A DNA stretch of 64,000 bases, taken from a virus (Duplodnaviria > Heunggongvirae > Uroviricota > Caudoviricetes). The stretch is taken from the IMG/VR virus record IMGVR_UViG_3300042348_001285; one strand, 5' to 3'. This document shows, piece by piece, positions 6,393 to 29,653 of the stretch; position 1 is the stretch's first letter; the number at the start of each line of letters is the position of its first letter. The notes below the pieces were generated by a model, which saw only the letters and a list, made by a program, of their open reading frames with translations, ran no database searches and had not been told where the DNA came from. Both the position numbers and the translations under genes were made by a program.

Positions 6393-6413
6393 CGCTGTGG
6401 GAAGGTATGAGCC

Positions 6414-7079: not shown

Positions 7080-7091
7080 AGGGCCAGATAC

Positions 7092-8329: not shown

Positions 8330-8403
8330 TGCGGTTCGGTGGGTGACTCCCGGTTAGTGACTCTGAGATTATAGCACGGATAGGCAGGGGGGCGCAAGCC
8401 CCC

Positions 8404-8616: not shown

Positions 8617-8700
8617 GGTGCGTTGCGGTGTCGGTTGGTGACTCTGTGATTATAGCAGGGATGGGCCAGGGAACACAAGCCCCCCCAATCCCCGTCACCC

Positions 8701-9153
8701 TCAGCCAGCAACCACAGCACCCTTGGCAACCTTACGGGGGGCACGCTTGCGGGCGGGGGCCGGTGCATCGGCGGTCACAGTGGCCTTGGTTGCCTTGGTT
8801 GCCTTGGTTGCCTTAGTCCGTTTCCGTGGTGCCGGGGCCGGTGCAGCAGCCAGCAGGGCGATAGGGCCACTTGCGGCCATCAGGACGGGAACCTCAGCGG
8901 GCACGACAATTTCCTGGAACTCAATAGCGATGCCATCGATGGCTTCAACCGTGGCCCTAGCCAGGGCAGCTAATTGGTCGTTGCGGGCATCGATTGCCTC
9001 GCGGGTTTGACAACCCAGATCATAGGCAGTGTCTGCCGTGATGGTGGCCACGGTGATGATGTAGGCGATCACAATGCCAGCAATGCGGGCAGCCTTCTCA
9101 AGGGTGGGGGCCCAATCGGCCTTCAGGATGGTTGCGATGGTGGTGGTGGCCAT
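8701..9153 (-). CDS. hypothetical protein (150 aa) with a KAT-tripeptide repeat and a basic C-terminus
   Basis: Begins MATTT. A 9-bp 'ggccttggt' DNA repeat run at 8775-8810 encodes KATKATKATKAT. Confidence 0.5.
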   Translation of the reverse strand: MATTTIATILKADWAPTLEKAARIAGIVIAYIITVATITADTAYDLGCQTREAIDARNDQLAALARATVEAIDGIAIEFQEIVVPAEVPVLMAASGPIALLAAAPAPAPRKRTKATKATKATKATVTADAPAPARKRAPRKVAKGAVVAG

Positions 9154-9200
9154 GGTGCGTTGCGGTGTCGGTTGGTTGACTCTGTAATTGTACCATACGG
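9154..9200 (-). promoter_or_regulatory. representative copy of the conserved promoter-leader cassette
   Basis: Reverse complement reads 'TGGTACAATTACAGAGTCAACCAACCGACACCGCAACGCACC ATG GCC ACC'. More than 50 near-identical copies lie between 6.3 and 31.4 kb. Confidence 0.7.
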
Positions 9201-9233
9201 CAGGCAGGGGGCGCAAGCCCCCCGTACCCGCAA

Positions 9234-9425
9234 TCACTCTGCGTCGTAACCGTCGAACCATGGGCCCCTTTGCCGTGTGCGGCGACGGGCGGTAGCACTG
9301 ATGGCGGTCTTGTAGGAAGTCTCAGGGCTTTTGCAGTGGGCTTGGGCCTCAGTCAGGGTTAGACCACGGGCAATGGTGCGATCGGGGCCGTTCATGAAGG
9401 AGCGAACGATCTTGTAGGTGGTCAT
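9234..9425 (-). CDS. small cassette ORF (63 aa)
   Basis: A TACAAT -10 box at about 9445 is followed by ATG. Confidence 0.45.
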   Translation of the reverse strand: MTTYKIVRSFMNGPDRTIARGLTLTEAQAHCKSPETSYKTAISATARRRTRQRGPWFDGYDAE

Positions 9426-9867
9426 GATGCGTTCCGGTTCGGGACCCCCATATTGTATGCCATGGGTGGCCAGGTGTCAAGGTGCCGGGTTGTTTGTTTG
9501 CATTTCGTAATAATGCTAGTGGGAGTAATACAAACGTACTAGCTTACCCGGTGAGTTTGCGCTTCGGGTGTCGCGGTCCGGTGAGTTTGCGCTTCGGGTG
9601 TCGCGGTCCGGTGAGTTTGCCGGTCGGTGAGTTTGCCGGTCGGTGAGTTAACTATCGGGTGCGATGTTACAAAACTTTACATACCGGGGCAGGGAGTTTA
9701 ACCGTAATGAGTTAGCCACCCGGTGACAACACAAAACTTAACATTCCGGTGGTAGCTTCACGGCAATGAGTTAGCCACTCGGTGTCAGCACACCATGGCA
9801 GGGGGCATGTGAAACCAGCATAAAGAAAGGCCGCCGATTGGCAGCCCTTTACTATGCGGACTTTCGT

Positions 9868-10257
9868 TCACAAAGGGTTGAGATTATCATCCACATCATC
9901 CATTCTTTCAAAGGAAGGGCAATGGAGCAGATTGCCGCTTTCCGCATACCCATCGATCACATATTGTGCGTACTGCTTAATCTTCTGCACAGCCACTTTG
10001 CTGTCTACTGTCTCCACGAACTCGCCCATGTTATAGTATGAAATCCGATCACCATTGTGGAAGTGATAAACCCTCTTTAGAATGAGGCGCATCCCGCTAA
10101 CAAAAAACTCCATATCGACTTGACATTCGTCCCCTACCCCAAAGAATACGGGAAATGTATACAAATCGTTAGGGGAGGGATTAGCCCAGGGGCTGGAATT
10201 TTCCCACTGAAGGGTAACTGAAGTCGTCCCACGAGAAATGATCGAGGAGGTGGGCAT
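9868..10257 (-). CDS. hypothetical protein (129 aa)
   Basis: Cassette at 10262-10295. Lower-GC gene body. Confidence 0.5.
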   Translation of the reverse strand: MPTSSIISRGTTSVTLQWENSSPWANPSPNDLYTFPVFFGVGDECQVDMEFFVSGMRLILKRVYHFHNGDRISYYNMGEFVETVDSKVAVQKIKQYAQYVIDGYAESGNLLHCPSFERMDDVDDNLNPL

Positions 10258-10562
10258 GGTGCGTTCCGGTTGACTCTGTAATTATAGCATGGGGCGGGAG
10301 CCTGCTGTGGGTTTCCGGGGGTTTTGTTTGCATTCCGTAATAATGCCGGGTCGGTGAGTTTGCGGTTCGGTGAGTTGACCATCGGGTGAGATGTTACAAA
10401 ACTTAACACACCGGGGCAGGGGGTTTGACCGTAATGAGTTAGCCACTCGGTGTCAACACAAAACTTAACACATCATGGCAGGGGGTTTGACCGTAATGAG
10501 TTAAACCCCCAAACAGCAAGCCCCAGCAAAGCCAGGGCAGTAGCAACAACCTGATGCAACCC

Positions 10563-10766
10563 TCAACCTCGCGCAGCCCGAGAAAAGTCCAACTCAGGGT
10601 AAACCACCAACTCCCTAGGCAGGCTGCGGGCACGACGGGCCCATGCGTACTCATCGGAATACATCGCCTCGATGCGGGCATTATCACAGGCAACGGCAGC
10701 GGTGATACGTTCACGGGCGGCAGCACGACGGTCGGAGGCGATCTGGGTGCGGTAGGTGGTGGCCAT
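10563..10766 (-). CDS. small cassette ORF (67 aa, begins MATT)
   Basis: Cassette at 10775-10800. Confidence 0.5.
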   Translation of the reverse strand: MATTYRTQIASDRRAAARERITAAVACDNARIEAMYSDEYAWARRARSLPRELVVYPELDFSRAARG

Positions 10767-10954
10767 CGGGGCGTTTCGCTTGGGACCCCCTAATTATAGC
10801 ATGGTGGGGCCTGCTGTGGGTTACTAATGGTTTTGTTTGCGTTTTGTGACAGTGCCGTGGGCAATGAGTTTGCTATCGGGTGAGTTGTAACAAAACTTTA
10901 CACACCAGGGCAATGAGTTTGACGGCAATGAGTTAAACCCCGGACAGCAAACAG

Positions 10955-10977
10955 CAAAAAACCCCAGCGAACCGGGG
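10955..10977 (-). terminator. Rho-independent terminator
   Basis: Minus strand reads CCCCGGTTCGCTGGGG followed by UUUUUU. Confidence 0.65.
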
Positions 10978-10998
10978 CGAGATGGAAAGGTCGCGGTA

Positions 10999-11307
10999 TC
11001 ATGCGCAGCGGTAGAGCCAGCCAGTCGTCGGCTGAACCGGGCTAGGATCGGCCAAAATTGAAGCCAGCCATGCCCGAACACCTTTAGCGGGGGCTTTCCA
11101 GCTATCGGCTTTCAAGATGGCCCCGTCTGTCAGGCGTATAAAGCAGTAGACCGAACGCTGCGACTCGCAGGGAACACCACTGTGGATAGGCGCCATTGAT
11201 ACCTTGGCATTGCTGCGGCCCATTTGGTAGGCGTAGGCGTAGGCGCCAGCGCTCTTACTGGTCAAAATGGCGATAAAGGCATCGATCTGGGATGTGGTGG
11301 TGGCCAT
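10999..11307 (-). CDS. hypothetical protein (102 aa) of the WKAPAKG(V/I)R family, paralogous to 30961..31365
   Basis: Begins MATTT. 'FIRLTDGAILKADSWKAPAKGVRAWL' compares with 'FVDRVTGDVYKVANWKAPAKGIRYNL' in the paralogue. Confidence 0.5.
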   Translation of the reverse strand: MATTTSQIDAFIAILTSKSAGAYAYAYQMGRSNAKVSMAPIHSGVPCESQRSVYCFIRLTDGAILKADSWKAPAKGVRAWLASILADPSPVQPTTGWLYRCA

Positions 11308-11384
11308 CGGGGCGTCTCGGGTGGGGACTCTGTAATTGTACCATGGATGGGCTAGGGAACGCAAGCCCCCTAACCCCGTGGCGG

Positions 11385-11546
11385 TCAGGCGACTCTAACG
11401 TGGAGGCCCCGAGCGATCTCTTTAAGTTCGGATTCAGTGCGGAAGATCAGCATGAGCCAGAATTCTCCGGTGACTTCAAGATTGTTGGCCCTGATGACGT
11501 TCATGATGTCGTGGCGGAGGGCTTGCTTGCGTTGGGTGGCGGTCAT
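11385..11546 (-). CDS. small cassette ORF (53 aa)
   Basis: Cassette-derived start MTATQRK. Confidence 0.4.
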   Translation of the reverse strand: MTATQRKQALRHDIMNVIRANNLEVTGEFWLMLIFRTESELKEIARGLHVRVA

Positions 11547-11596
11547 GGGTGGCTCCCGGTTGGTTGACTCTGTAATTATAGCACGGGGCCGTAGAG

Positions 11597-11830
11597 TCAG
11601 CAATAAGCGTTTAGAGATCCGTATGGATTGGACGAAAGATCGAAAAAACCCTCCCAGCTTTCTGCTTCAGCGCGTGCCATTGGCATCAATGGAGAGGGTG
11701 ACTGAGAAGTGCCCCACTGGTGGCGATCATTTGCTCTAGCGAGGTGATGGTGGTGCTTAATCCTGGAGCGTGTTTCACTCCAGTAGCAAGCGGTTCCATG
11801 AAAGTAGCCGTAGCCGGTTGCATTGGTCAT
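11597..11830 (-). CDS. small cassette ORF (77 aa) with a HHHH run
   Basis: Cassette at 11845-11880. Confidence 0.45.
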   Translation of the reverse strand: MTNATGYGYFHGTACYWSETRSRIKHHHHLARANDRHQWGTSQSPSPLMPMARAEAESWEGFFDLSSNPYGSLNAYC

Positions 11831-11971
11831 GGCGGGGCGGGTGGTGGTGGTTGGTGACAGGTGAATTGTAGCATGGGTGCCGGGGCAAAGTCAGCCCCCC
11901 TGGATTCTGCGGTAAGCACGGGGGCCCGAACGGCATCCGCCGAACAGCAACCCCCCCCCCGTTCATACCCC

Positions 11972-12259
11972 TTAAAGCCCCGCAACCCTAGCAAGCTCCT
12001 GCATGGTGCAGGGGGAAGAACCCATCAGGGGCAAGATAGCAACCTCAAAATCCGAATGCAGATTCTGCCAGCGGATAGCAGCAGCGGCGGCATCTTCGAT
12101 GGACCAGCCTTCTACGGGGCCACCCTGCAGGAACCAGCGGCGCTGATGGGCGGTGGGGGTCTCAGGCTTGACGCGAGCCCACAGGCGGTAGGTTGTTGCT
12201 GGGGCGGGGGGTTGCATCGGGGCGGGGGGTTGCATCGGGGCGGCGGTTGCAGTAGCCAT
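11972..12259 (-). CDS. small cassette ORF (95 aa, begins MATATAAPMQPPAPMQPPAP)
   Basis: The cassette and a tandem 15-bp repeat encode the duplicated PMQPPA. Confidence 0.5.
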   Translation of the reverse strand: MATATAAPMQPPAPMQPPAPATTYRLWARVKPETPTAHQRRWFLQGGPVEGWSIEDAAAAAIRWQNLHSDFEVAILPLMGSSPCTMQELARVAGL

Positions 12260-12336
12260 CGTTGCGGTGTCGGTTGGTTGACTTCGGTATTATAGCACAG
12301 GGGGCCAGAGAACACAATCCCTAACCCCCCCGGTCA

Positions 12337-12546
12337 TCAGGCGGCAGCCAGGGCCAGCCAGTCGGCGGGTAGACACGTCGGATAGGGGCAGCGGCTGGTC
12401 CAGCGGACTTCTGCCCGCAGCTCGCCGCAGTCTTCCCACATGTCAACTACTTGCCCCCGCAGGCGGTTCCAGTGGAGGACGCGACCGGCGGTGTCTTCGC
12501 CGTTGTTGGCGGGGCGGACGGTGGCTCCAATGGTGATGGTGGTCAT
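12337..12546 (-). CDS. small cassette ORF (69 aa)
   Basis: Cassette at 12560-12595. Confidence 0.45.
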   Translation of the reverse strand: MTTITIGATVRPANNGEDTAGRVLHWNRLRGQVVDMWEDCGELRAEVRWTSRCPYPTCLPADWLALAAA

Positions 12547-12887
12547 CGCTGGTTGGGGGGGGGGGTGCGTTACCCTGAAATTATAGCACAGGGCCGAGGG
12601 TGCTGGGGTTGCCGGGTGTGCCGTTGGTTTTGTTTACGTTTGGTAACAATGCCGTTGGGAGTAATGCACTTGTACTAGCTTGCCTGTGGTTTGTTTGCGC
12701 TCCGGGTGCGATGTTACAAAACTTAACATTCCGATGGCAGGAAGTTTGACGGCAAGGAGTAATACACTTGTACTAGCTTGCCCGGTAAGTCTACGCTTCG
12801 TGACGGCAGGCAAGGGGCCAACATAGTGTCAACCCCATGGCATTGTCAACCCCATGGCATTGTCAACCCCTGGGCATCGTCAACCCC

Positions 12888-13127
12888 TCAAGCAGCAGCC
12901 AAGGCATCCAGGGCGGTAGCCAGGGCAGTAGCAGGGAAATAGCGGTCCTCACCTTCGCAGATGTCAGACAGGCACCAGCGGAAGCCGTTACGGGTCGCAT
13001 CAGCGGTCAGGATGTAGTCGGCACCTTTGAAGAAGGCACGGGATCCTTCACTGAATTCCACACCGGCAGGGAGGCCTTTGCGGAGAGCAGCGTTAATCAT
13101 GGTGGATGGGGTGGTTGCCGGGCCCAT
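12888..13127 (-). CDS. small cassette ORF (79 aa)
   Basis: Cassette at 13135-13170. Confidence 0.45.
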   Translation of the reverse strand: MGPATTPSTMINAALRKGLPAGVEFSEGSRAFFKGADYILTADATRNGFRWCLSDICEGEDRYFPATALATALDALAAA

Positions 13128-13398
13128 GTTGTCGTTTGGTGCGTTACCTAGTAATTATAGCATGGGGTCGAGGGTACTGTGGGTTGCCGGTGGGTGTCGA
13201 TGGTTTTGTTTACGTTTGGTAACAATGCCGGTCAATGAGTTTGCAGTTCGGTGAGTTAACTAACGGGTGCGATGTTACAAAACTTTACATATCGGGGCAG
13301 GGAGTTTGGCGGCAATGAGTTTACTGCCAGGTGGCGACACAAAACTTAACACATTGAGGCAGGGAGTTTGACGACAAAGAGTTATCGCACCGGCCAAC

Positions 13399-13422
13399 AA
13401 AAAAAACCCCGGCGAACCGGGG
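13399..13422 (-). terminator. Rho-independent terminator (UUCG loop plus U8)
   Basis: Minus strand reads CCCCGGTTCGCCGGGG followed by UUUUUUUU. Confidence 0.75.
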
Positions 13423-13449
13423 CAGGGGCAGGGCAGTATTGGGTGGGTG

Positions 13450-13662
13450 TCAGCCTACGCCTTGTCCCCAGACGGTTAAGCAGCGGTCTCGGGCGACCCG
13501 GTAGGATTCAAGCTCCCTGCGGTTAAGATCCAACATGGGGCGATAACCGTTGATACCGGCTGCACATGCCGCTTTCCAAGCAGCCTCAGCACGGTCAATA
13601 GCACATTGGGCGATATTAGCCCAAGAATCGGCGGAGATGGTTGCGGTGGTGGTGGGAGCCAT
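13450..13662 (-). CDS. small cassette ORF (70 aa, begins MAPTTTAT)
   Basis: Cassette at 13670-13700. Confidence 0.5.
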   Translation of the reverse strand: MAPTTTATISADSWANIAQCAIDRAEAAWKAACAAGINGYRPMLDLNRRELESYRVARDRCLTVWGQGVG

Positions 13663-14281
13663 TTGCCGTTTGGTGCGGTACCCTGTAATTATAGCATGGT
13701 GCAGGGGCAATTGCGGGGTGCCGTTTGATGGCGTTTGGTAACAATGCCGTTCGAGTAGTAGGTTTGTACTAGCGGACTTCGGCGGCAATTTTCGGTTCGA
13801 ACTATCGGGTGTGATGTTACAAAACTTAACATTCCGATGGCAGTTTGACGGCAATGAGTTTACCACAGGAGTAATACAAACGTACTAGCTGACTCCGGCG
13901 GCAATTTGCGGTTGAGAGTGGTACTAACGTACTACCTAACCCGGTGTCAAAATGGGGGCCACGAGGATCGGACTCGTCTTCTATTTGTTATGAGCAAATT
14001 GCATTCACCAGATTGCTAGACCCCCGTGAGTATTACATTACCCTGGCAAGTAAGTTCCGGTCACTATTCCTAGCAGCCATGGCAACCAGCACAGGCAAGC
14101 AAGCCCCTGTAGGCATGGTGCGTCCCAACCGTGCAATGAGTTTGGGGTCCTCACCAGGGAGAACGACCGGTTTCCATGGGCCCGGTGGAAAGGTGGTTTC
14201 GGTGGTCATAAGCCTGGGGGGTGACAGGTTGATTATAGCATAGGGGCCAACACAGTGTCAACCCCTCGGCAACCCCGACCA

Positions 14282-14540
14282 TCAATAACCCAGCCAAACC
14301 AGGGCCTGACCAGCATGGTTAGGGTTGACTTCAGGGTGGGAATCAGCCTTAAGGTCCGCAACATTTGCCTCATGCTGCCGTAGAAGCCGCCCAAGCTCGC
14401 GGTCAGTCAGGATCAGAGACTCGCTGCGGTCCCAAGCTGCGGCCAGAACGCTAGCGGCATAATTGTCGGGATCTTGACCCAGTGCATAATCAAAGCAGTC
14501 GGCCCACTGCTCGTCGGTGAAGGCAACCTGCTCGGCGCTG
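14282..14540 (-). CDS. cassette ORF whose conserved ATG position is lost; start uncertain
   Basis: The cassette 'TGCTACAATTACAGAGTCACTACCTGGACCGCCACC' is present, but I find no in-frame ATG before the body (...HIISAEQVAFTDEQW...). This is either a non-canonical start or a decayed gene. Confidence 0.25.
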
Positions 14541-14689
14541 ATGATGTGGCTGGTAGCGGTGACAGCGGTTGCCGTGGGTGGCGGTCCAGGTAGTGACTCT
14601 GTAATTGTAGCACACGGGGGTAGGGTGCCGTGGGTTCTGTTACGCTTCGTGATGATGGGCACGGCAAGGGGCCAACACAGTGTCAACCA

Positions 14690-14869
14690 TCACCCGATGC
14701 CTTCCCGATCGTATTCCCCGTAAGTCGATTCATATACGGCACGGTCATCGTAGAATTCAGCCTCAGCATTAGGATCGCCGTCAGCCAGTGCTTGGAGGAA
14801 TTTTAGGGTATCTTCGTCAGTGGGGGTAGCGGCGAAGGCGGCGGTAATGGTTGCTGATGTGGGGGCCAT
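14690..14869 (-). CDS. small cassette ORF (59 aa, MAPTSATITAAF...)
   Basis: A TACAAT box at about 14895 is followed by ATG GCC CCC. The ORF is below the track threshold. Confidence 0.4.
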   Translation of the reverse strand: MAPTSATITAAFAATPTDEDTLKFLQALADGDPNAEAEFYDDRAVYESTYGEYDREGIG

Positions 14870-15065
14870 TTTTTCTCCGGGGTGTCCGTCTATTGTAGCA
14901 TAGTGCTGGGGGGGGGGTTGGGGTTTGCGGGTCGGTGTTGTGCTTCGGGTGTTAGGCTTCGGTGAGGTTGCCGGTCGGTGAGTTTGCAGTCCGGTAAGTT
15001 GACTATCGGGTGCGATGTTACAAAACTTAACATTTCATTGGCATCGAGTTTGTGGTATGAGTTAC

Positions 15066-15372
15066 TTAAATGTAATTATAGGGTGCTTTTTGCGAGTAAT
15101 GTAGAATTCCGGGGTGTGTTTTCGGAGTAATGTAGAACGCCCCAAAATAAAAACCCAAAATTCAATCCTTGAGATCGATTGCAGGGGAACGGAGTTACTC
15201 CTAAAAAAATTAAAAATTTTAGGACCTTTTCAAAAACAGCATGAAAAATTCTATATTTGAATGCAAATTCTGCACCCTACTACTATAATCGCATATAAAT
15301 TATTTAATAGAAGACTCTTATCAATGAGTTATGATACATAAGAGTTCCTTATCAATAGGTAATAGCAGTAAA
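15066..15372. repeat. complex intergenic module, copy A (iterons, hairpins, AT-rich tail with IHF-like site)
   Basis: Carries 2x 'GGGTGCTTTTTGCGAGTAATGTAGAA'-type iterons, the hairpin TCCTAAAA-N10-TTTTAGGA, and TTGAAT...TATAAT. Related to the copies at 17.1, 19.9, 21.5, 22.2, 25.2, 25.7 and 29.4 kb. Confidence 0.8.
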
Positions 15373-15430
15373 GCAACAAAAAAAAGGGAGGGTTACCCCT
15401 ACCCATTCTTTGCGCTAAGTTTATCGCCAA

Positions 15431-15781
15431 TCAATCATTCTTGGCACCCCATGCACGCAACCGGCTAATCGCCTCCTCTATGCTGCTGGCATTAGACTTA
15501 CGGAATTTGGCCGTTTTGCTATAGGAGAACATTTCGATCTTCCCACCCCCGACGGAAAACATTGCGTAGCGGGAATTGTGGAAAATTCCGTTAATCCATT
15601 CTTCCTTGGGGTCTAGGGATACCTTGACGATTAGGGAAGCGTTTTGCTCACCGCCAAGTGTGGACCTTTGCACAGAAGAAACCGGGAAGGTGGCATTAAG
15701 GGCAGCAGCCAGGGTCTCACGGTCGGCTTCGGTCGGGATGAAGGCGGTTGCAAGGGTTGCGGTAGTTGCCGGGGCCATCAT
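15431..15781 (-). CDS. hypothetical protein (116 aa, begins MMAPATTAT)
   Basis: Cassette at 15790-15820. Confidence 0.5.
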   Translation of the reverse strand: MMAPATTATLATAFIPTEADRETLAAALNATFPVSSVQRSTLGGEQNASLIVKVSLDPKEEWINGIFHNSRYAMFSVGGGKIEMFSYSKTAKFRKSNASSIEEAISRLRAWGAKND

Positions 15782-15940
15782 TGCCGGTGGTTGGTTGGCT
15801 TCGTAATTATAGCACAGGGCCGAGGGTACTGTGGGTGATGTTACAAGGAGTGACAACAGGCACGGCAGGGTGCCGTCACGGCCTGCAACAACAGGCAAGG
15901 CAGGGGCTACCGGCAGGCAACCCCCCCCCCTGGCCATCAC

Positions 15941-16237
15941 TCACACAGCCGGAACCTGGCAGCCGGCAGCGATCACCCCTTTGCCTTCCATCTCATCCAG
16001 CAGGGTGACGTAAGCGGCAGCGATGGCGTTCTTGGTGGCACGGCCGGTTAGCTCAACCCGGAAACTCCGGCAGCTGAAGGGTAGGCATGTGAACGTGCTG
16101 TAGCCGGTGCTGGTCTCTACAGTGCCCTCACTGGCAGTGACCCTGGCAGGGCGGCCATTGGGTTTGTAGTAGGAGACTTGGAAAACCTTGCCGGGCTGGT
16201 CAAGGCTGTTCACGTAGAAGGAATTGGGGGTTGCCAT
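15941..16237 (-). CDS. hypothetical protein (98 aa, begins MATPNS)
   Basis: Cassette at 16245-16285. Confidence 0.5.
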   Translation of the reverse strand: MATPNSFYVNSLDQPGKVFQVSYYKPNGRPARVTASEGTVETSTGYSTFTCLPFSCRSFRVELTGRATKNAIAAAYVTLLDEMEGKGVIAAGCQVPAV

Positions 16238-16326
16238 TGCGGTTCGGGGTGGTTGCCGTTGGTTGGTTGCTCTGTGATTATAGAATGGAATGGAAGGGGG
16301 CGCAAGCCCCCCTCAACTCCTAGCAA

Positions 16327-16578
16327 TCACACAGCAGGCAGGTAAATTTCCAATGTGTAGGTAACCTCAGCCTCATTATAGGCAGCCAGCGTATCGGCTA
16401 GTTCCCCAAGCGTCACATAGTCGCTGTAGTCTCCATCGTCAATCAGGAATTCCATCTCATCGCCTTCGGCGGGTTCTTCCGATAGGTAGGGGGCACAGAA
16501 GGGGGCCAGTCCGGTGGGCATGGCGACGGGCAATGCAGCGAGGATTTCAGCTAGGGTAGGGGCGGTTGCGGTAGCCAT
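16327..16578 (-). CDS. small acidic cassette ORF (83 aa, begins MATATAPT)
   Basis: Cassette at 16585-16620. Confidence 0.5.
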   Translation of the reverse strand: MATATAPTLAEILAALPVAMPTGLAPFCAPYLSEEPAEGDEMEFLIDDGDYSDYVTLGELADTLAAYNEAEVTYTLEIYLPAV

Positions 16579-16771
16579 GGTGGTCTCGGTGGGTGACGAC
16601 AGGTAAATTGTAGCACACGGGGTCCTGGAACGCAAGGCCCCCCCTACTATTAGTTGCCAACTTTCGGTAGTATAGTCCCATACGTCAAATAGCCATACCT
16701 TTCGATGCCGTACTTGTGCAAAATATGCACACTGGACCATGGTACACCTTGTCCCCAAGTACCTGACTGAC

Positions 16772-16888
16772 TCATACGCTCAAAAGCACATTCAACGCTG
16801 TTACGCAGCCAGGAATGATCAATACGGGATGCTGATGCCGCTTGGTTGCTGCGGTAGTTGCGGTACTTGGGGGGGTGGGGAATGCCAT
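16772..16888 (-). CDS. tiny cassette ORF (38 aa, MAFPTPPSTATTAATKRHQHPVLIIPG...)
   Basis: Cassette at 16895-16925. The remainder of track ORF 16772..17197 is read-through. Confidence 0.3.
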   Translation of the reverse strand: MAFPTPPSTATTAATKRHQHPVLIIPGCVTALNVLLSV

Positions 16889-17027
16889 TGTTGCCGGTGG
16901 TTGGTTGGCTCCGTAATTATAGCACATTGCCTCGGGGGTTGGGGCCCCGGATTGCTGACTCCCAAGGTGTGGTGGACAGTTTGTAAACTGTCTATTTGAC
17001 TTCGTGAGTTTGACTTTTAGGGTTTGA

Positions 17028-17318
17028 TTCTGGGGTGTGTTTTCGGGGTCAATGTGGAATCTCAGAGTGCTTTTTGCAGGTAATGCAGAAACCCCAATTT
17101 GAAAAGTTCGAAAGTCAACCGCTGAGATCGACTGCAGGGGAACGGAGTTACTCCTAAAAAAATTAAAAATTTTAGGACCTACTGAAAAACCATCCAAAAA
17201 ATTCTACATTTGAATGCAAATTCTGCACCCTACTATCATATACTCGCGTAAAAATTATTTAATAGAAGACTCTTATCTAAATGTCTAGACAGATAAGTAA
17301 TTCTTATCAATCTAATCC
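17028..17318. repeat. complex intergenic module, copy B
   Basis: Same iteron, hairpin and AT-rich architecture as copy A. Confidence 0.8.
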
Positions 17319-17449
17319 CCCATCAAACCGCAATGTTGTGGGCTATTCGAGGATGCTAACCGGAGTCTCACACCAAATAGCAAAGGGGGCGATGCCGTAG
17401 CACCAACCCCCAAACATTAAACTAAGGTCAATCTAAGGCCAAACCAAGG

Positions 17450-17638
17450 TCAAACATAGAGACGAACCTGAGCCAGGAAGCACTCCCGGTGTTGCTTGCG
17501 AAGGATGGTGCGGATTCGCTTAGCCTGCTCAAGACTCCATACCCGGTTGCCCCCTACGGGCTCAGACCATGGTTTGCGGGTGATTTCCTGAACAGTGTAG
17601 AAGATTCGGGTTTTCTTGGTTGCGGTTGCGGTGGCCAT
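17450..17638 (-). CDS. small basic cassette ORF (62 aa, begins MATATATKK)
   Basis: Cassette at 17645-17690. Confidence 0.5.
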   Translation of the reverse strand: MATATATKKTRIFYTVQEITRKPWSEPVGGNRVWSLEQAKRIRTILRKQHRECFLAQVRLYV

Positions 17639-17809
17639 TGGTGCGTGTCGGTTGGTTGGTGACAAGTGAATTGTAGCACGGTCGCCGGGGGCTGTCAATG
17701 CTTTTGGGGTAGGGACCCGGCTTCCAAATTTTCGGAGGGGGCGCAAGCCCCTTGCCATCTGGTCATCATTCCCTAGGTATCAATGCCCTTGCAGTAGGAT
17801 CCAGTTCTC

Positions 17810-17880
17810 AAAATTTTCGGAGGGGGCGTTAGCCCCCGACTGGTTCGGGCGCCGTAGGCGGTAACCCGAACCCAATCCCA
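17810..17880. repeat. 71-bp GC-rich structured element, copy 1 (second copy at 39816..39885)
   Basis: Near-identical 'AATTTTCGGAGGGGGCGTTAGCCCCCGACTGGTTCGGGCGCCGTAGGCGGTAACCCGAACCCAATCCCA'. It holds hairpin GGGGGC-GTTA-GCCCCC and a perfect 8-bp stem GGTTCGGG/CCCGAACC that encloses CGCC-GTAG-GCGG. Confidence 0.75.
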
Positions 17881-17930
17881 GGGCATCAATCCCAGGGCAT
17901 CAATCCCAGGGCATCAATCCCATGGGCAAA
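17876..17930. repeat. microsatellite (gggcatcaatccca)x4 directly after the structured element
   Basis: Direct tandem reading. Confidence 0.85.
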
Positions 17931-18012
17931 GTTGCCAGTGGCTGATAACAATGGTAGTATAACAAAAAAGGCCAGGAAGCACAAGCCCCCTGACCATGGT
18001 AGCTAATCCCTA

Positions 18013-18315
18013 TCAGGAACACTGATTTAATGGGGTAGGATCAAAGTGAATATCCCGCTCGATGCGTAGTCCAGCTGGGCCCCGAGTAGCTTCTAGGTCC
18101 CTGAGGTCGAAGTACCCAAGTTCCCGCTCCAGACCGATAACCAACCCAAAGCATAACCCTGTCGCAGGATCCATCTCCGTGAGATACCATGTCCAGTTTG
18201 ACCAGGGGGTGAAAAATTTGGTATAGGCGATTGCTGCCATACCTTTACCGTCCTGTGCGTACAGGGCAGGAACCTTGGTGGCGATTGCCTTGGTTAGTAG
18301 CTTGGTGTTGGCCAT
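18013..18315 (-). CDS. hypothetical protein (100 aa, begins MANT)
   Basis: Cassette at 18320-18360. Confidence 0.5.
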   Translation of the reverse strand: MANTKLLTKAIATKVPALYAQDGKGMAAIAYTKFFTPWSNWTWYLTEMDPATGLCFGLVIGLERELGYFDLRDLEATRGPAGLRIERDIHFDPTPLNQCS

Positions 18316-18695
18316 GGTTGCCGGTGGGTGACGACAGGGTAATCATAGCACAGGCAGGAAGGGGGGGCGCAAGCCCCTTGCCCCCCGGTTTTGTCCCTCA
18401 GTCTGGAATTGATTGGCCGTAGCGGAGGGGTTCGGCTTCTTTCATTACCTAATAGCTGCATGAATGTTTAATAGCCCCATGGTAAACCACGCTCACATTC
18501 TCATATATTCTTTGTTGAAAACAAAGACTTGGCATCATTCATGCAGGTTTTCGGCTCTTACTTCACCTCATTTAACTCTCGCTGAGACAATGCGAGTAGC
18601 CCCGTTGACTTTGCGGTTTGGGTGGTGGTGGTGGGTGACTTCGGTAGTATAGCACTAATGGGAAGGGAACGCAAGCCCCCCCGACATGCCAATAA

Positions 18696-18869
18696 TCACT
18701 TGCTATCGGTCACTTCCCAAGCAGTGATTTCTTGGTCTACCAAGTTGCCTTGACCGGGATGCGGAAAGAAGTTGTAGTCCATATCGCACAGGGCATCTTC
18801 CATGTTCACACCCTCTTTAAGGTCAAAGGTGACCTTCACAGTGACGGTGGCGGTGACTTTGCGGCTCAT
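18696..18869 (-). CDS. small cassette ORF (57 aa) behind two tandem cassettes
   Basis: Two promoter cassettes at 18895-18910 and 18945-18970 have no ORF between them. The Met sits at 18869. Confidence 0.4.
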   Translation of the reverse strand: MSRKVTATVTVKVTFDLKEGVNMEDALCDMDYNFFPHPGQGNLVDQEITAWEVTDSK

Positions 18870-18999
18870 GGCGGTTCGGTGGTTGGTGACAGGGTAATCA
18901 TAGCACGGGCAGGCAGGGGGGCAAGCCCCCTCAACCGCCCGACAAGTTGACTTCGGTATTATAGCACAGGTAGGCAGGCAGGTAGGCAGGCAGGCAGGG

Positions 19000-19248
19000 T
19001 CACTCCTCCCACAGTGGGCCAGCCGACATTGCGCCAACGGGGTCACCTAAGTTTTCTGCGCTAACCGGGACGGCGGCAACATCATAGCTGGGGTGGATTT
19101 CGCCGGCTGCATTACATACCCAGCAATCGACCGTCCAAAAGCGGCCCGTGTAAATCGGGTTATAGCAATCATACTCTGGACGGTTTTCATCGTGCGGAGC
19201 ATCAGCCTGATAGATCAAGCGAGCGGAAACGGTTTTAGCGTCAGCCAT
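19000..19248 (-). CDS. small Cys/Trp-containing cassette ORF (82 aa, begins MADAKT)
   Basis: A variant cassette with a TAATAAT -10 box and a C-run leader lies at 19250-19290. Confidence 0.45.
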   Translation of the reverse strand: MADAKTVSARLIYQADAPHDENRPEYDCYNPIYTGRFWTVDCWVCNAAGEIHPSYDVAAVPVSAENLGDPVGAMSAGPLWEE

Positions 19249-19291
19249 GGTTGGGGGGGGGTGGCGGTTGGTTGGTGTTGTCGAGTAATTA

Positions 19292-19582
19292 TTAGCGTTT
19301 GGCAAGTTTGCCAGTGGCCAGCATTCCATCACCTTGGCCGCGACAATTAAAAACACGACCATCAGGCAAGCGCACAACAAAGGAATACATCCTTGTTGCG
19401 TAAGGGCCGGTACGCCATGATCCAGTTACGGCACCAGTCCCTATTTGATTACCATGCCAATCCGTAAAGGTCCAATGAGAAGTCTGGAAGAAACCTTTTA
19501 CGTTTGACCCATTGGCTGGACGCTTGGCGTAACAAGCAATGCTGTCATTAGCCTTACAATTGGTTTCAACTAAAGTGACCAT
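19292..19582 (-). CDS. hypothetical protein (96 aa)
   Basis: Cassette at 19630-19660. Confidence 0.45.
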   Translation of the reverse strand: MVTLVETNCKANDSIACYAKRPANGSNVKGFFQTSHWTFTDWHGNQIGTGAVTGSWRTGPYATRMYSFVVRLPDGRVFNCRGQGDGMLATGKLAKR

Positions 19583-19744
19583 TGCATAATCCGGCTATCT
19601 GCCGGTGGGAGGAGGGGGCCGGGTTTGTCCCGATGGGTGAATTATAGCACATTGTCGGTGGTGCTGGGGGTCCAGGATTGTTGACTCCTGGGGTGTGGTG
19701 GACAGTTTGTAAACTGTCTATTTGCGTTGGGAGTTATGACTCTG

Positions 19745-20060
19745 GGGTTGGGTGCCGAGGGTGCATTTTGTGAGTAATGTGGAACCTTAGGGTGCGTTTT
19801 CAGGGCAATGTGGAAACTCTGAAATCAAAAACCGAAAATTCAATCCCTGAGATCCGTTGCAGGGCAACGGAGTTACTCCTAAAATTTTTGAATTTTTTAG
19901 GACCTAGTGAAAAATGAGTAAGAAAATTCTACATTTGAATGCATATTCTGCACCCTACTATCATATACTCGCGTAAAAATTATTTATAGTACACTCTTAT
20001 CTAAATATCTAAACAGATAAGAAATTCTTATCCATAAGCACAATCAATGAGTTAAGAACC
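19745..20060. repeat. complex intergenic module, copy C
   Basis: Iterons 'GGGTGCATTTTGTGAGTAATGTGGAA' and 'GGGTGCGTTTTCAGGGCAATGTGGAA'. Also the hairpins, a palindrome CTTATCT-N12-AGATAAG, and 'TTATCCATA', which is DnaA-box-like. Confidence 0.8.
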
Positions 20061-20065
20061 AGGAG

Positions 20066-20093
20066 ACAAAAAAAGGGGGGGCAACCCCCCCCC
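20066..20093 (-). terminator. Rho-independent terminator G7-CAA-C9 plus U7
   Basis: Minus strand reads GGGGGGGGGUUGCCCCCCC followed by UUUUUUU, just after the stop at 20099. Confidence 0.8.
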
Positions 20094-20098
20094 GACCA

Positions 20099-20530
20099 TC
20101 ACAGCTCCTGAACTTCAACCCCGATGCGATCTGCTGCAGCAAGCAGAAGTTCCCGGTAGGAGTCGAACTTGTTGGGAGTTGGCACCCAGAACCTCAAGAC
20201 ACCTGGATCACTAGGAATACCACTGGACCACCCCTGGTAATCGGGAGTTGGGATACCGTCGCTTACTACAACGATTCCATCAGTTGGGTTGTAAGAAATA
20301 TTCGTCTTCACCATTCGGCCAGCAATATAATCGCCACGCAATTCGATAAAGCCATCATTGGCATAAGTAGGGTAATTGTGAACTTGGTCCAGGATTGTAA
20401 GCTCATTGAGACCACGAACAGCCTGAAGGAAACCCATACCAGTTTCAGTGCCACATGCTTCATAAGCAATTAGCAGGTATGTTGCAGCGAGTTTGGCAGT
20501 TTGTGACGGGTCGGATACTTGGAATTTCAT
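20099..20530 (-). CDS. hypothetical protein (143 aa)
   Basis: Intact ORF. Confidence 0.5.
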   Translation of the reverse strand: MKFQVSDPSQTAKLAATYLLIAYEACGTETGMGFLQAVRGLNELTILDQVHNYPTYANDGFIELRGDYIAGRMVKTNISYNPTDGIVVVSDGIPTPDYQGWSSGIPSDPGVLRFWVPTPNKFDSYRELLLAAADRIGVEVQEL

Positions 20531-20591
20531 GGAGTTTGAGAGTGTGTGGTTACAGAGTAGATGGGCCCAGATCGCAACCCCTGACTAACAA

Positions 20592-20789
20592 TCAAGTAGC
20601 CGCCAACGCAGCTTCAGCCTCGACAATACGGGCAGCTTTGTTGTGTGCCATTTCAGCCTGGAGTGCCTTAAGGAGGTCCGTAGATGCTTTCAAGTCCTCA
20701 GCACCGATGACTCCTTGATTGTAAAGGTCGATAGCACCCCCTGCGGCGAAGTGGGAGCGATAGGCTCGTTGGTAACGTGTTTGGGCCAT
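20592..20789 (-). CDS. small helical cassette ORF (65 aa, begins MAQTRYQRAYR)
   Basis: Cassette at 20795-20840. Confidence 0.45.
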   Translation of the reverse strand: MAQTRYQRAYRSHFAAGGAIDLYNQGVIGAEDLKASTDLLKALQAEMAHNKAARIVEAEAALAAT

Positions 20790-20915
20790 TTTGCTGTGGG
20801 GCGGTTGCCCTCGGTTGGTTGTTTGGTGATGGGTGAATTGTAGCATGGTGCCACTGGTTCCGTCAACCCCCTGGATTCTGCGGCAGGAAGGGGACCCGGC
20901 AGGCAAGGACTCCCC

Positions 20916-21116
20916 TCAGTAAGCCCCCAGGGCAATAGGAGAGCTGAAGGTACCATTCCCGTACTGGAAGATAGCATAGAGCTTACGCCCCCTGTGGCGC
21001 TTCACTACATAACGTGTACGGGATTCTTTGATACCACCAAAGCATTCAGCTTCAAACTGTCGGGTACTTACGACGTTGTAGGTGATGCTGTCGATTGTGA
21101 GGGTTGCTGGGGTCAT
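20916..21116 (-). CDS. small cassette ORF (66 aa)
   Basis: Cassette at 21125-21160. Confidence 0.45.
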   Translation of the reverse strand: MTPATLTIDSITYNVVSTRQFEAECFGGIKESRTRYVVKRHRGRKLYAIFQYGNGTFSSPIALGAY

Positions 21117-21439
21117 CGTTGCCGTTTGGTGCGGTTGACTCTGAAATTATAGCACGGTTGCTGGGTCCTGTCGATGCCTTCGTATTGTTGCCTATGGGTC
21201 GTGGTCTCATTGGTCTCAGTTGGGTATCAAGGTGAAATTGCCGGGCAGTGAGTTTGCCGGTCGGTGAGTTGACTATCGGGTGCGGTGTTACAAAACTTAA
21301 CATTTTGGCGACAATTCGCGGCCCAGTGAGTTTACCATCGGGGACAACACAAAACTTAACATTTTATTGTCAATGAGTTTGATGCAATAGTTCCCTATTA
21401 TGGGGGAATTGTGGCTACTTTTTTATTCATTGCCCATTG

Positions 21440-21716
21440 TAATGAGTTTGATTTCGGTTTGACTTTAGGTGTTATGGCACTAGGGTTGAGTGCTAGGGGT
21501 GCATTTTGCAAGTAATGTAGAAACCCCAAAATCAAAAACCCGAAAGTCAATCCCTGAGATCCATTGCAGCGGAACGGAGTTACTCCTAAAAAAATCAAAA
21601 ATTTTAGGACCTAGATGAAATCCATCCAAAAAATTCTACATTTGAATGCATATTATGCACCCTGGGGCTCTTTATATACACTTTTTCGCGAATATATGAA
21701 TAATAAGTGTTTATCT
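21440..21716. repeat. complex intergenic module, copy D (subfamily with 'atgcaccctggggctctttatatacactttttcgcgaatatatg')
   Basis: Shares its core with the other copies but has a distinct right arm, which copy F also has. Confidence 0.8.
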
Positions 21717-21724
21717 TATGTTGT

Positions 21725-22050
21725 TGGACCCGAGTAGTAAACAACTGGGCGTGGTTCCACCAGTCTTAGTTAAGTATCGCAATGAGTCTACATCGAGTAG
21801 TTTACAGTTGGCATCAGTCCCAACAGTCTCGTTTCAGTCCCACAATGAGACCCACCCAAGTAGTAAACAACTGGGATACAGTCCCAACAGTCTCGTTTCA
21901 GTCCCACAATGAGACCCACCCAAGTAGTAAACAACTGGGATACAGTCCCAACAGTCTCGTTTCAGTCCCACAATGAGACCCACCCAAGTAGTAAACAACT
22001 GGGATACGGTCTCAACAGTTTCGTTTCAGTCCCATAATGAGACCACACCT
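21725..22050. repeat. tandem array of a 64-bp unit (about 5 units, 3 near-perfect)
   Basis: Unit 'cccaacagtctcgtttcagtcccacaatgagacccacccaagtagtaaacaactgggatacagt'. The array is sandwiched between modules D and E. Confidence 0.85.
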
Positions 22051-22054
22051 CAGG

Positions 22055-22445
22055 GTAAACATGGCAGGTATTTTCGGAGTTAATGTGGAACCTTGGGGTG
22101 CTTTTTGCCAGCAATGTAGAATACCAGGGTGCGTTTTCCGGTTAATGCAGAAACCACAAAATCAAAAAACCAAAATCCATTCCTTGAAATCGACTGCAGG
22201 GGAACGGAGTTACTTCTAAAATTTTTGAATTTTTTAGGACCTAGTTGAAAACAGCATGAAAAATTCTACATTTGAATGCAAATTCTGCACCCTACTATCA
22301 TATACTCGCGTAAAAATTATTTATAGTACACTCTTATCTAAATATCCATAATCAATAAGTTATCCTTATCTATGTACCAACCAATAGGTAATAGCAGTAA
22401 AGCAACAAAAAAGGGAGGGCCACCTTTCGGCAGCCCCCTTATCAG
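22055..22445. repeat. complex intergenic module, copy E (three iterons)
   Basis: Three 29-31-bp iterons are followed by the conserved hairpins and the AT-rich tail. Confidence 0.8.
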
Positions 22446-24929: not shown

Positions 24930-25039
24930 CGTTGCGGTGTCGGTTGGTTGGCTTCGTAATTATAGCACATGGCCGGGTGTGGATGCGGTTCGGCATGTTG
25001 ACCCCGGGGTGTGGTGGACAGTTTGTTAAGTGTCTATTT

Positions 25040-25330
25040 GCGTTGGGAGTTTGACTTTAGGGGTTTGATTCCGGGGTGTATTTTCGGAGTTAATGTGGAA
25101 CCTTAGGGTGCGTTTTCAGGGCAATGTGGAAACTCTGAAATCAAAAACCCGAAAGTCAATCCCTGAGATCCATTGCAGGGGAACGGAGTTACTCCTAAAA
25201 AAATTAAAAATTTTAGGACCTAGTTGAAAACCATCCAAAAAATTCTACATTTGAATGCATATTATGCACCCTGGGGTCTTTATATATATACTTTTTCGCG
25301 AATATATGTATAATAAGTGTTTACCTTATG
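25040..25330. repeat. complex intergenic module, copy F
   Basis: Same subfamily as copy D. Confidence 0.8.
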
Positions 25331-25537
25331 TTGTTGGTGAGTTGAATAGTTGACGACTGGGTGTGATCTCGTCGGTCTCAGTTGAGTATCGGAATGAGTT
25401 CACATCGAGTAGTTTACAGTTGGGATACAGTCTCGTTTCAGCCCCACAATAAGACTCATCCAAATAGTCAACAACTAGGGTACGGTCTCAACAGTCTCAC
25501 TTCAATCTCACAATGAGATCACACTTCAAGAGCAAAC
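25331..25537. repeat. degenerate copies of the 64-bp unit between modules F and G
   Basis: Reads '...gatacagtctcgtttcagccccacaataagactcatccaaatagtcaacaactagggtacggtctcaacagtctcac...'. Confidence 0.6.
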
Positions 25538-25865
25538 AGATGGGTGCATTTTAGGAGTAATGTGGAATCTCAGGGTGCATTTTAGGAGTAATGTAGAATG
25601 CCCCAAATCGAAAATCGAAAATCCATTCCTTGAAATCGACTGCAGGGGAACGGAGTTACTCCTAAAAAAATTAAAAATTTTAGGACCTAGTTGAAAACCA
25701 TCCAAAAAATTCTACATTTGAATGCATATTCTGCACCCTACTACTATAATCGCATATAAATTATTTAATAGAAGACTCTTATCAATGAGTTACGATATAT
25801 AAGAGTTCCTTATCAATAGGTAATAGCAGTAAGGCAACAAAAAAAGGGGGGGTAATCACCCTAAG
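25538..25865. repeat. complex intergenic module, copy G
   Basis: Two near-identical iterons 'GGGTGCATTTTAGGAGTAATGT(G/A)GAAT'. The right arm is nearly identical to copy A. Confidence 0.8.
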
Positions 25866-27499: not shown

Positions 27500-27672
27500 G
27501 GACCTTGCTATTATAGGGTAGGCAATGGATGTTGTCAATACCCGGTTAATGGTGGCGGTGGTCTGGACCTTGCCATTATAGGCGAGACAATAGGTGTTGT
27601 CAATACCCGGTTAATGGTGGGGGCATCGGGAATAGAGCCACTATAGGCAAGGCAATGTGGGGTGCCAATACC
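27500..27672 (-). promoter_or_regulatory. three tandem near-consensus sigma70 promoters (TTGACA-N17-TATAAT) with a 65-bp period
   Basis: Reverse complement of each unit reads 'GTATTGACAACATCCATTGCCTACCCTATAATAGC'. The third copy reads TTGGCA...TATAGT. Confidence 0.7.
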
Positions 27673-28991: not shown

Positions 28992-29261
28992 GGTGGGACC
29001 CGGTGCGTTTAGTTGGTGGGTGACTTTGGTAGTGTAGCATGGGGCCAGGGGCAATGTCAACACCCTGGTTTTGGTCCCTTGCTTGCTGACCCATGAATTA
29101 TAGCATGTCCGGGGGCCAACTGTGGATGGCCGGGAGTTAATGCTCATGGGCCGACACATTGCCGAAGGGATTGACAAGGCTGGGGGGAGTCGCCCTATAA
29201 TGGGCAAACAATCAGAGAAGGGGCCTTGCCCACAGGTAATAGGTTATGCCACGGGGCTATG

Positions 29262-29545
29262 CCATGGTGCGTTTTGCCGTTAATGTAGAATTTTGGGGTG
29301 TGTTTTCGGGGTTAATGTGGAATCGTCAAAATCAAAAACCCAATTTTCATTTCCCCAAATCCATTGCAAGGGAACGGAGTTACTCCTAAAATTTTTGAAT
29401 TTTTTAGGACCTAATGAAAAACGATCCAAAAAATTCTACATTTGAATGCAAATTCTGCACCCTACTATCATATATTCGCGAAAAATTTATTTATAGTACA
29501 CTCTTATCTAAATACCTATATAGATAAGTTTTGTTTATCAATGAG
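29262..29545. repeat. complex intergenic module, copy H
   Basis: Iterons 'GGTGCGTTTTGCCGTTAATGTAGAAT' and 'GGGGTGTGTTTTCGGGGTTAATGTGGAAT', plus the hairpins and the AT-rich tail. Confidence 0.8.
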
Positions 29546-29653
29546 TTTGCTGTTAGTTCTCATCAGCCATCTAACTATCGTCAAGCCAATTTAAATACCA
29601 TGCCATTTTATTCCCCGAAAGATATAGTCAGTAGGTCATCACCCTATCAGCAA

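Follow-up and report, generated by a model that had tools for sequence, protein, structure and literature searches.

The 64,000-nucleotide stretch of IMG/VR virus record IMGVR_UViG_3300042348_001285 analysed here (the window) contains, at positions 21725-22043 on the minus strand, an array of five head-to-tail units of 63-64 bp (array 1), which lies between two direct copies of a larger intergenic repeat, designated the module. Array 1 is a copy-number-variable tandem repeat, in which units are gained or lost in whole 64-bp steps between close relatives. On balance we favour its interpretation as a minisatellite set between two direct module copies, probably within a transcribed leader in which each unit of one class (class 1) contributes one hairpin. 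The best reading of its setting is an early-type, promoter-dense, ORFan-rich region of an uncultivated freshwater jumbo phage. The modules, present in eight copies, are a more remarkable feature of this region than the arrays.

The 64-bp arrays

Tandem Repeats Finder (TRF) placed array 1 at 21815-22049 with a period of 64, 3.7 copies, 97% matches and a score of 433, and the TRF consensus is the unit of the original prediction with its phase rotated. An iterated nhmmer profile of the 64-bp unit delimited five units on the minus strand between modules D and E, where about five had been predicted. Direct-repeat analysis found 21815-21933 to be 100% identical to 21879-21997, meaning that array 1 includes three consecutive identical unit lengths, and a recent expansion is therefore indicated. 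The last two units are increasingly degenerate. The window contains 5 copies of GTCTCATTGTGGGACTGAAAC, a 21-mer taken from the unit, where shuffled sequences lead to an expectation of 0.00.

A degenerate version of the same unit, also predicted, was recovered between modules F and G as array 2 (Table 1). The partial pre-unit that joins module E to the first full unit of array 1 has a counterpart, CTGTTTGCTCTTGAAGTGTG, ahead of array 2. One unit-like fragment stands alone outside the arrays; it was detected by nhmmer with E = 5e-4 in the window, and its counterpart in the related contigs L008 and L023 with E = 4e-8. In L008, a fuller copy of this fragment abuts the -35 hexamer TTGACA.

Variation in unit number among relatives

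Further members of the DNA family to which the window belongs, with identities of roughly 75-96%, are a 279-kb contig in IMG/VR (IMGVR_UViG_3300044846_005229) and some 20 metagenome contigs from freshwater lakes. Units were counted at orthologous or paralogous loci in the metagenome contigs (L-numbered). Between paired modules, the number ranges from one to five, with one unit in L002 and L015, two in L009, three in array 2 of the window, L011, L016, L014, L015 and L002, four in L024, and five in array 1 of the window and in L024. The closest relatives of the 21.4-22.8 kb region, L011 and L016 (91-96% identity), carry three units each against five in the window. The spacing from module to module is 502 bp in L011 and 630 bp in the window, and the difference of 128 bp is exactly two units. 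An invariant unit number with translation of the array in relatives, which would have contradicted the original prediction, was thus not observed. The array would be a ready strain-typing marker for this uncultivated freshwater jumbo phage.

Composite architecture

Both arrays are embedded in a fixed order of elements, which starts with a predicted terminator and the 5' module (E or G), continues with the short pre-unit, the class-1 units and a single class-2 unit, and closes with a conserved linker of 62 nt and the 3' module (D or F). The same order is found in every relative with paired modules. Self-comparison of the two regions showed that the composites, each ~1 kb, are collinear paralogues, with 84% identity between 21497-21939 and 25106-25544 and 74.5% between 21951-22419 and 25427-25851. 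Module pairs flank a satellite-like array in both cases, as had been proposed for D/E and F/G. However, the flanking modules are direct repeats in the same orientation, and all eight modules lie on the minus (gene) strand; the arrangement is therefore direct, and the description as mirror-like in the original prediction is wrong. Relative inversion is confined to the sub-module arms that adjoin the array, the R units on its upstream and the L arm on its downstream side.

Unit classes and the hairpin

Class-1 units contain a 6-bp hairpin with a 3-nt loop (GTCTCA-TTR-TGGGAC in array 1), followed by TGAAAC or TGAAGT. They are always 5'-proximal, and are the type that gets amplified. Class-2 units, which read (G/A)ACTCATTSCGATACTYAACT and have no hairpin, are always last and adjoin the linker. 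At single-unit loci the sole unit is of class 2. The stem variants found in class 1 are GTCTCA/TGGGAC, ATCTCA/TGAGAT, GTCTCA/TGAGAC, GTCTTA/TGGGAC, GTCTTG/TGGGAC, GTCTTA/TGAGAC and GTCTTA/TGGGGC. Between them the hairpin is kept by compensatory changes as well as wobbles, which work in the minus-strand sense only. Nearly all of these variants keep pairing through G-U wobbles, whereas the opposite strand would have A-C mismatches, which is modest evidence that the hairpin may matter as minus-strand RNA (or single-stranded DNA). The evidence is no more than modest, as a good part of the variation is inherited and formal testing for covariation gave a marginal result.

Coding potential and searches for known elements

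The period of 64 equals 3x21+1 and is not a multiple of 3, and the reading frame therefore shifts with each added unit. For the six mechanical open reading frames (ORFs) running across the array or modules, Pfam returned no match at E<=1, and the array is non-coding. Searches of modules and arrays against Rfam 15 gave no match at the gathering score in the whole window and none at E<=5 in 14.8-29.7 kb. No sigma-70-like site was found inside either window array, and in the units of relatives there is a single marginal 9/12 match, which is at chance level. BLAST of the unit against plasmids and phages likewise returned chance-level matches only. Pfam scans of 40 genuine ORFs of the window, which covers 64 kb of a genome of ~280 kb, revealed no ParA/ParB/ParR, Rep or obvious helix-turn-helix (HTH) regulator, and no transposase, recombinase or cas gene turned up either. 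A check by eye for NtcA (GTA-N8-TAC) and LexA-type boxes found neither.

The module

The eight copies of the 170-270 bp module are located at about 15.2, 17.2, 19.9, 21.6, 22.2, 25.2, 25.7 and 29.4 kb (modules A to H, Table 1). From 5' to 3' on the minus strand, the order is control region, L arm, ~15 variable nt, AT-rich hairpin, invariant block, T-rich stretch and R units. The control region comes in three types, which share an ATAAG..CTTAT palindrome and a TATAAATA-like box. In types 1 and 2 a terminator-like hairpin is present upstream together with a TATAAATA/TATTAAATA box, and the TATAAATA box lies 27 nt upstream of type-1 modules, module E included. No sigma-70 consensus was found in the module interior. 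The L arm is GGGTGCAnAATnTGCATTCAAATGTRGAA, and the invariant block, TTTTAGGAGTAACTCCGTT, is preceded by the AT-rich hairpin CCTAAAA..TTTTAGG. The R units, 32 nt each (TTCYACATT..AAAAnGCACCC), occur in 1-4 tandem copies and are the inverted complement of the L arm. They form a small tandem repeat of their own, numbering from 1 in module D to 4 in L001 (4208-4330), and their period is half as long as the 64-bp unit of the arrays.

The AT-rich hairpin (CCTAAAA[..]TTTTAGG) has a loop that occurs in two mutually reverse-complement forms, seen as a minus-strand BLAST match of 22216-22239 to 25193-25216 and 25660-25683 (24 nt, 92%). One form is found in modules C, E and H, and the other in A, B, D, F and G. 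The two forms amount to a flip/flop inversion between inverted repeats that are short. A perfect 18-bp palindrome, GACAGTTTACAAACTGTC (16975-16992, 19701-19718 and 25017-25034), lies downstream of modules B, C and F; it precedes the next TGTGCTATAAT promoter motif by ~50-60 nt and looks like an operator.

In an alignment of 41 distinct module copies from the phage population, the blocks are nearly invariant. RNAalifold of these 41 modules yielded invariant stems only, with a covariation term of -0.12, and the sole variable L/R pair (columns 30-150) behaves as independent (AU16, AC10, GU10, GC5). Codon periodicity is absent from the module variability. Folding z-scores against shuffles were -2.6 for the sense and -2.25 for the antisense strand; folding on both strands is expected of any inverted repeat, and an RNA gene is therefore not shown. 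The palindromes GGAGTAACTCC, TGCATAATATGCA and TTCGCGAA are too tight to form RNA hairpins, so the module is probably, at least in part, a DNA-level regulatory element. Two module patterns had zero matches among 185,579 cellular species genomes, and the modules are absent from INPHARED phages.

Table 1. Positions of arrays, modules and associated features. Positions are those of the window unless a related contig is named.
Feature	Position	Strand	Description
Array 1, unit 1	22043-21980	-	class 1; nhmmer
Array 1, unit 2	21979-21916	-	class 1; nhmmer
Array 1, unit 3	21915-21852	-	class 1; nhmmer
Array 1, unit 4	21851-21789 (63 nt)	-	class 1; nhmmer
Array 1, unit 5	21788-21725	-	class 2 (GACTCATTGCGATACTTAACT, without hairpin); nhmmer
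Pre-unit ATGTTTACCCTGAGGTGTG	22044-22062	-	partial; resembles a unit's 3' end; bridge from module E to the first full unit
Linker CAACAACATAAGATAAACACTTATTATTCATATATTCGCGAAAAAGTGTATATAAAGAGCCCCA	21663-21724	-	between array 1 and module D; conserved; 91% identical to 25274-25337
Array 2	25337-25519	-	three degenerate units, 69-80% identical to array 1
Array 2, unit 1	25519-25456	-	class 1' (ATCTCA-TTG-TGAGAT + TGAAGT)
Array 2, unit 2	25455-25401	-	shortened class 1
Array 2, unit 3	25400-25337	-	class 2
Linker of array 2	25272-25336	-	between array 2 and module F
Lone unit-like fragment GATACCCAACTGAGACCAATGAGACC	21195-21235	-	just upstream of the sigma-70-like promoter of ORF 21116-20916
Module A	15081-15277	-	solitary
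Module B	17033-17230	-	solitary
Module C	19759-19955	-	solitary
Module D	21497-21662	-	downstream of array 1; one R unit
Module E	22063-22292	-	upstream of array 1 in the transcription sense; L arm GGGTGCAGAATTTGCATTCAAATGTAGAA, AT-rich hairpin CCTAAAA..TTTTAGG, block GGAGTAACTCCGTT, three 32-nt R units
Module E, upstream control region	22293-22438	-	intrinsic-terminator-like hairpin 22438-22415; ATAAG..CTTAT palindromes; TATAAATA box 22325-22318
Module F	25073-25271	-	downstream of array 2
Module G	25542-25738	-	upstream of array 2
Module H	29265-29462	-	solitary; 3' half and downstream flank joined to a D-type 5' half in relative L011
R unit sites	22063-22160, 25073-25140, 25542-25605; L001 4208-4330
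Chimeric module	L011 1-520 vs window 21300-21820 and 29000-29560		5' half D, 3' half H
Translation/tRNA-related genes	43848-45326, 56964-57713, 60299-61681, 62328-62412, 13953-14025

Recombination between modules

The module downstream of the array in L011 matches module D of the window from the array through the TAGGTCCTAAAA block, and thereafter matches module H together with its downstream flank (29.46 to 29.09 kb in the window). This arrangement is the product of a clean homologous crossover within the conserved module core, joining cassettes that are 7.9 kb apart in the window. L020 and L021 have an extra ORF of ~150 codons between two modules, where other genomes have units only. The extra ORF (MAKVLGNIETPTEF...) follows directly after R units without a separate promoter motif, and is itself followed by one degenerate unit and the linker (L020 2127-2906; L021 3690-4495). 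These comparisons show that the modules act as portable homology, where related phages have recombined and swapped adjacent cassettes.

Genome context

All identified genes in the window are on the minus strand. Those recognisable are phage-like or auxiliary and predict a DUF4942 DNA methyltransferase, a beta clamp, a cysteinyl-tRNA synthetase (CysRS), a pentapeptide-repeat protein, a thymidylate kinase, an HNH endonuclease, a CCA-adding/poly(A) polymerase head domain and an AAA_33 kinase with metallophosphoesterase, and there are two tRNAs. A translation- or tRNA-related set is made up of the full-length CysRS, the CCA-adding/poly(A) polymerase head domain, the AAA_33 kinase with metallophosphoesterase, tRNA-Ser and a tRNA-Met, the latter called by ARAGORN only. 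The kinase and metallophosphoesterase may serve a polynucleotide kinase (PNK)-like tRNA repair. Protein matches are distant (26-31% for the clamp), with cyanophages first and other phage genes too, and a nucleotide search with the region and 23 kb of the window found no match in 50,697 phage records. The window looks like a promoter-dense ORFan region of a novel freshwater-lake jumbo phage.

The promoter-dense ORFan stretch spans about 6 to 31 kb. With one mismatch allowed, an extended -10 motif, TGTGCTATAAT, is found at 24 sites of the window (7837-39459), always on the minus strand, against 0.9 expected, and 21 of the 24 are at 7.8-28.7 kb. Every small ORFan seems to have a promoter of its own, and G/C-run terminators are found 3' of small genes. 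Ten small ORFs were scanned and gave only two family matches, DUF2958 and cREC_REC. TATAAATA, a candidate phage-specific promoter, is present 17 times in the window, with 2 expected, and 12 of these are on the gene strand. The box resembles the T4 late promoter, TATAAATA.

This genome is in the habit of duplicating intergenic segments of ~65 bp in tandem. Three tandem 65-bp units at 27510-27670 each carry a perfect or near-perfect TTGACA-17-TATAAT promoter, and five tandem units of 65-67 bp at 39515-39795 each carry GAGTATAAATACTTAC; the genome therefore readily duplicates intergenic segments of such size. Overlapping BLAST segments of L010 suggest that unit number at the 27510-27670 locus differs in that relative. 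A further dispersed repeat, AATGTTAAGTTTTGTAAC..., occurs 14 times (0.13 expected), 13 of them as minus-strand sites at 6240-21363, and is often followed by tandem repeats of 14-16 bp (AAACTCACCG...); the recurring mechanical 'MLSFVTSHP' ORF fragments are due to this repeat. The 15-bp tandem repeat at 41845-42187 (22.9 copies) is coding and lies inside the pentapeptide-repeat gene at 41529-42302 (PF00805, E = 9e-41). GC skew on the plus strand lies above zero between about 4 and 28 kb and below zero between about 28 and 46 kb, with gene orientation unchanged and with replication or composition as candidate causes; 6-20 kb is more GC-rich (0.52-0.57), and the skew switch coincides with the end of the module/ORFan region.

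Interpretation of the array

As a minisatellite between direct module copies, the array would change in length by replication slippage or unequal homologous exchange. It would probably be transcribed in the same sense as the genes, within a long untranslated leader whose start would be the TATAAATA-type box that lies upstream of the 5' module, and each amplified class-1 unit would add one small RNA hairpin, with a possible role in processing, stability or as a decoy. Since some relatives have a single unit that lacks the hairpin, copy number is more likely to be modulatory than essential.

Several points weigh against this interpretation. The copy numbers derive from short-read metagenome assemblies, which are liable to miscount short tandem repeats, and the promoter assignment rests on motif matches. 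The covariation signal of the hairpin is weak and largely one inherited event; explicit helices in the units gave about 75-79% pairing with marginal covariation, and RNAalifold of all 32 units returned no consensus structure. Furthermore, the best-conserved part of the unit is not the hairpin but GAGACTGTTGRGAC...CCCAGTTGTTKACTA, a segment that contains direct GRGAC boxes ~10 bp apart. Its appearance is closer to short, phased DNA boxes, and this would speak for a role in binding at the DNA level.

The last point leads to the strongest of the alternatives, in which the units are DNA-level iterons, i.e. repeated sites for a phage or host DNA-binding protein in an operator/enhancer array, a partition centromere or an origin. 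Each unit has three direct GRNAC boxes ~10 bp apart as well as an inverted GTCTC, and the segment with these boxes is the best conserved. With a 64-bp period, corresponding to about six helical turns, the sites would all point to the same side of the helix. The double box GAGAC-N4-GAGAC is found 11 times where 1.5 are expected, nearly all within the arrays, the lone unit-like copy is directly upstream of the -35 of an ordinary promoter, and the modules are rich in short DNA palindromes that are impossible as RNA hairpins. Nevertheless, we consider this explanation unlikely, given that one unit suffices in some relatives, that the hairpin variants obey RNA wobble rules on one strand only, and that the Pfam scans of 40 genuine window ORFs found no ParA/ParB/ParR, Rep or obvious HTH regulator. 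The centromere-like site suggested in the original prediction gained no positive evidence, although protein binding to DNA at the phased GRGAC boxes may still occur.

A distinctly improbable alternative is that class-1 units mimic repeats of the CRISPR type. Each would then comprise a 38-nt repeat-like element (GTTTAC...GTCTCATTGTGGGACTGAAAC) and a conserved 26-nt spacer- or guide-like segment, with the upstream module as the leader, and host Cas6 would process the RNA into decoys similar to RNA anti-CRISPRs (Racrs) or into regulators resembling CRISPR RNA (crRNA). Phage-encoded repeat mimics are documented (PMC10651486). In the transcribed orientation, the class-1 hairpin is followed by GGGACTGAAAC, in which the Synechocystis CRISPR1 (I-D) and CRISPR2 (III) repeats end (PMC3575380, Table 1), and the sequence after the hairpin, ACUGAAAC, is the same as in the 3' handle region of type I-D/III repeats of cyanobacteria. 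The candidate repeat has GTTT at its start and AAAC at its end, the degeneracy of the terminal unit is also a feature of CRISPR arrays, and the weak protein similarities point to cyanophages. However, conservation is higher in the 'spacer' than in the 'repeat', the reverse of a CRISPR array, and the units are homologous over their full length, leaving no conserved repeats that alternate with unrelated spacers. The handle varies, being TGAAGT in class 1' and TTAACT in class 2, and the hairpin and handle are both missing from class-2 units and single-unit loci. No cas gene is among the scanned ORFs, the matches of the unit to plasmids and phages are at chance level, and the 11-nt match, noticed post hoc, is a lead only. 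Were this explanation true, the units would flood host Cas6/effector complexes with crRNA-like RNAs, either useless or regulatory, and copy number would tune the dose of an RNA anti-CRISPR. The strand-specific hairpin and the likeness to the 3' end of cyanobacterial CRISPR repeats together make a concrete hypothesis on RNA-based counter-defence.

Slightly less probable again is a stack of tandem promoters, or their decayed copies, comparable to the 65-bp arrays at 27.5 and 39.5-39.8 kb. Those loci show that promoter-bearing units (TTGACA-17-TATAAT three times, GAGTATAAATACTTAC five times) with a period of 65-67 bp exist in the same genome, and GTTGACT/GTTTACT of the unit aligns with the -35 of a real promoter in L008. 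Yet the expected -10 position reads TGTGGG, TATAAATA is in none of the units, and sigma-70-like sites are lacking from both window arrays, the 9/12 match in relatives being at chance level.

The composite element envisaged in the original prediction would be a transposon- or MITE-like (miniature inverted-repeat transposable element) structure with the array as cargo. The inverted L arm and R units of the module are indeed like terminal inverted repeats with several binding sites, and the modules are multi-copy and border variable cassettes. This origin is nevertheless very improbable, as the flanking modules are direct repeats with 8/8 in the same direction, no target-site duplication is visible in the module flanks inspected, and no transposase or recombinase is present among the scanned ORFs. 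Conservation also runs past both arms (three upstream types, a shared downstream palindrome), the documented rearrangement is a homologous crossover inside a module, and the modules are absent from the 185,579 cellular genomes. Finally, a repetitive protein is the least probable alternative of all: mechanical ORFs of 48-64 aa do cross the array on both strands, but the 64-bp period shifts the frame at every unit and unit gain or loss in relatives shifts it again, there is no Pfam match and no start context, and the plus-strand ORFs oppose every other gene.

If the minisatellite interpretation is correct, a single phage population shows how large phages remodel their accessory-gene regions. The 170-270 bp cassette would give portable homology for swaps of ORFan cassettes, and the same cassettes would seed minisatellites that expand and contract between strains. 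This would parallel the promoter early stem-loop (PeSL) elements considered below, in an unrelated lineage and with a far more elaborate element.

Comparison with known systems

PeSLs of T4-type phages are repeated promoter/terminator motifs in hyperplastic regions, and their recombination drives modular shuffling (Arbiol et al. 2010, PMC2839356; Comeau et al. 2014, PMC4122927). The modules are similar in being repeated intergenic cassettes concentrated in a hyperplastic, ORFan-rich region, in having promoters and G/C-run stem-loop terminators nearby (here predicted from sequence), and in that recombination between copies leads to indels or cassette swaps in close relatives, here the D/H chimera of L011 and the extra ORF of L020 and L021. 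They differ in being much larger, in their conserved non-promoter core, inverted L arm and 1-4 tandem 32-nt R units, and in the 64-bp minisatellite found between paired modules in two cases. Moreover, PeSLs occur in T4-type phages, whereas no T4-type core gene was noticed in the present window.

Arrays of iterons or centromere sites (ParB/ParR sites, origin iterons) share with the array a tandem, helically phased arrangement of short direct boxes. However, the length of a unit is three to six times that of a typical iteron, unit number goes down to one in relatives, and no cognate par or rep gene is among the 40 genuine window ORFs scanned. Racrs or solitary repeat units (Camara-Wilpert et al. 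2023, PMC10651486) and viral mini-CRISPR arrays resemble the units as non-coding phage repeats that, in the transcribed orientation, have a hairpin followed by ...GGGACTGAAAC. In contrast to these, the units have no variable spacers, many units and all single-unit loci are missing the hairpin/handle, and the likeness is limited to 11 nt and the overall architecture.

The array is like intergenic variable-number tandem repeats (VNTRs) of bacteria and phages, which are also non-coding and have head-to-tail units, perfect and degenerate copies, and whole-unit differences between strains. It is distinguished from them by its position in a fixed architecture, which is itself duplicated and conserved across the phage population, and by the strand-specific hairpin that one unit class, class 1, keeps. 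Array and modules together are a variation on known kinds, VNTRs and PeSL-like cassettes.

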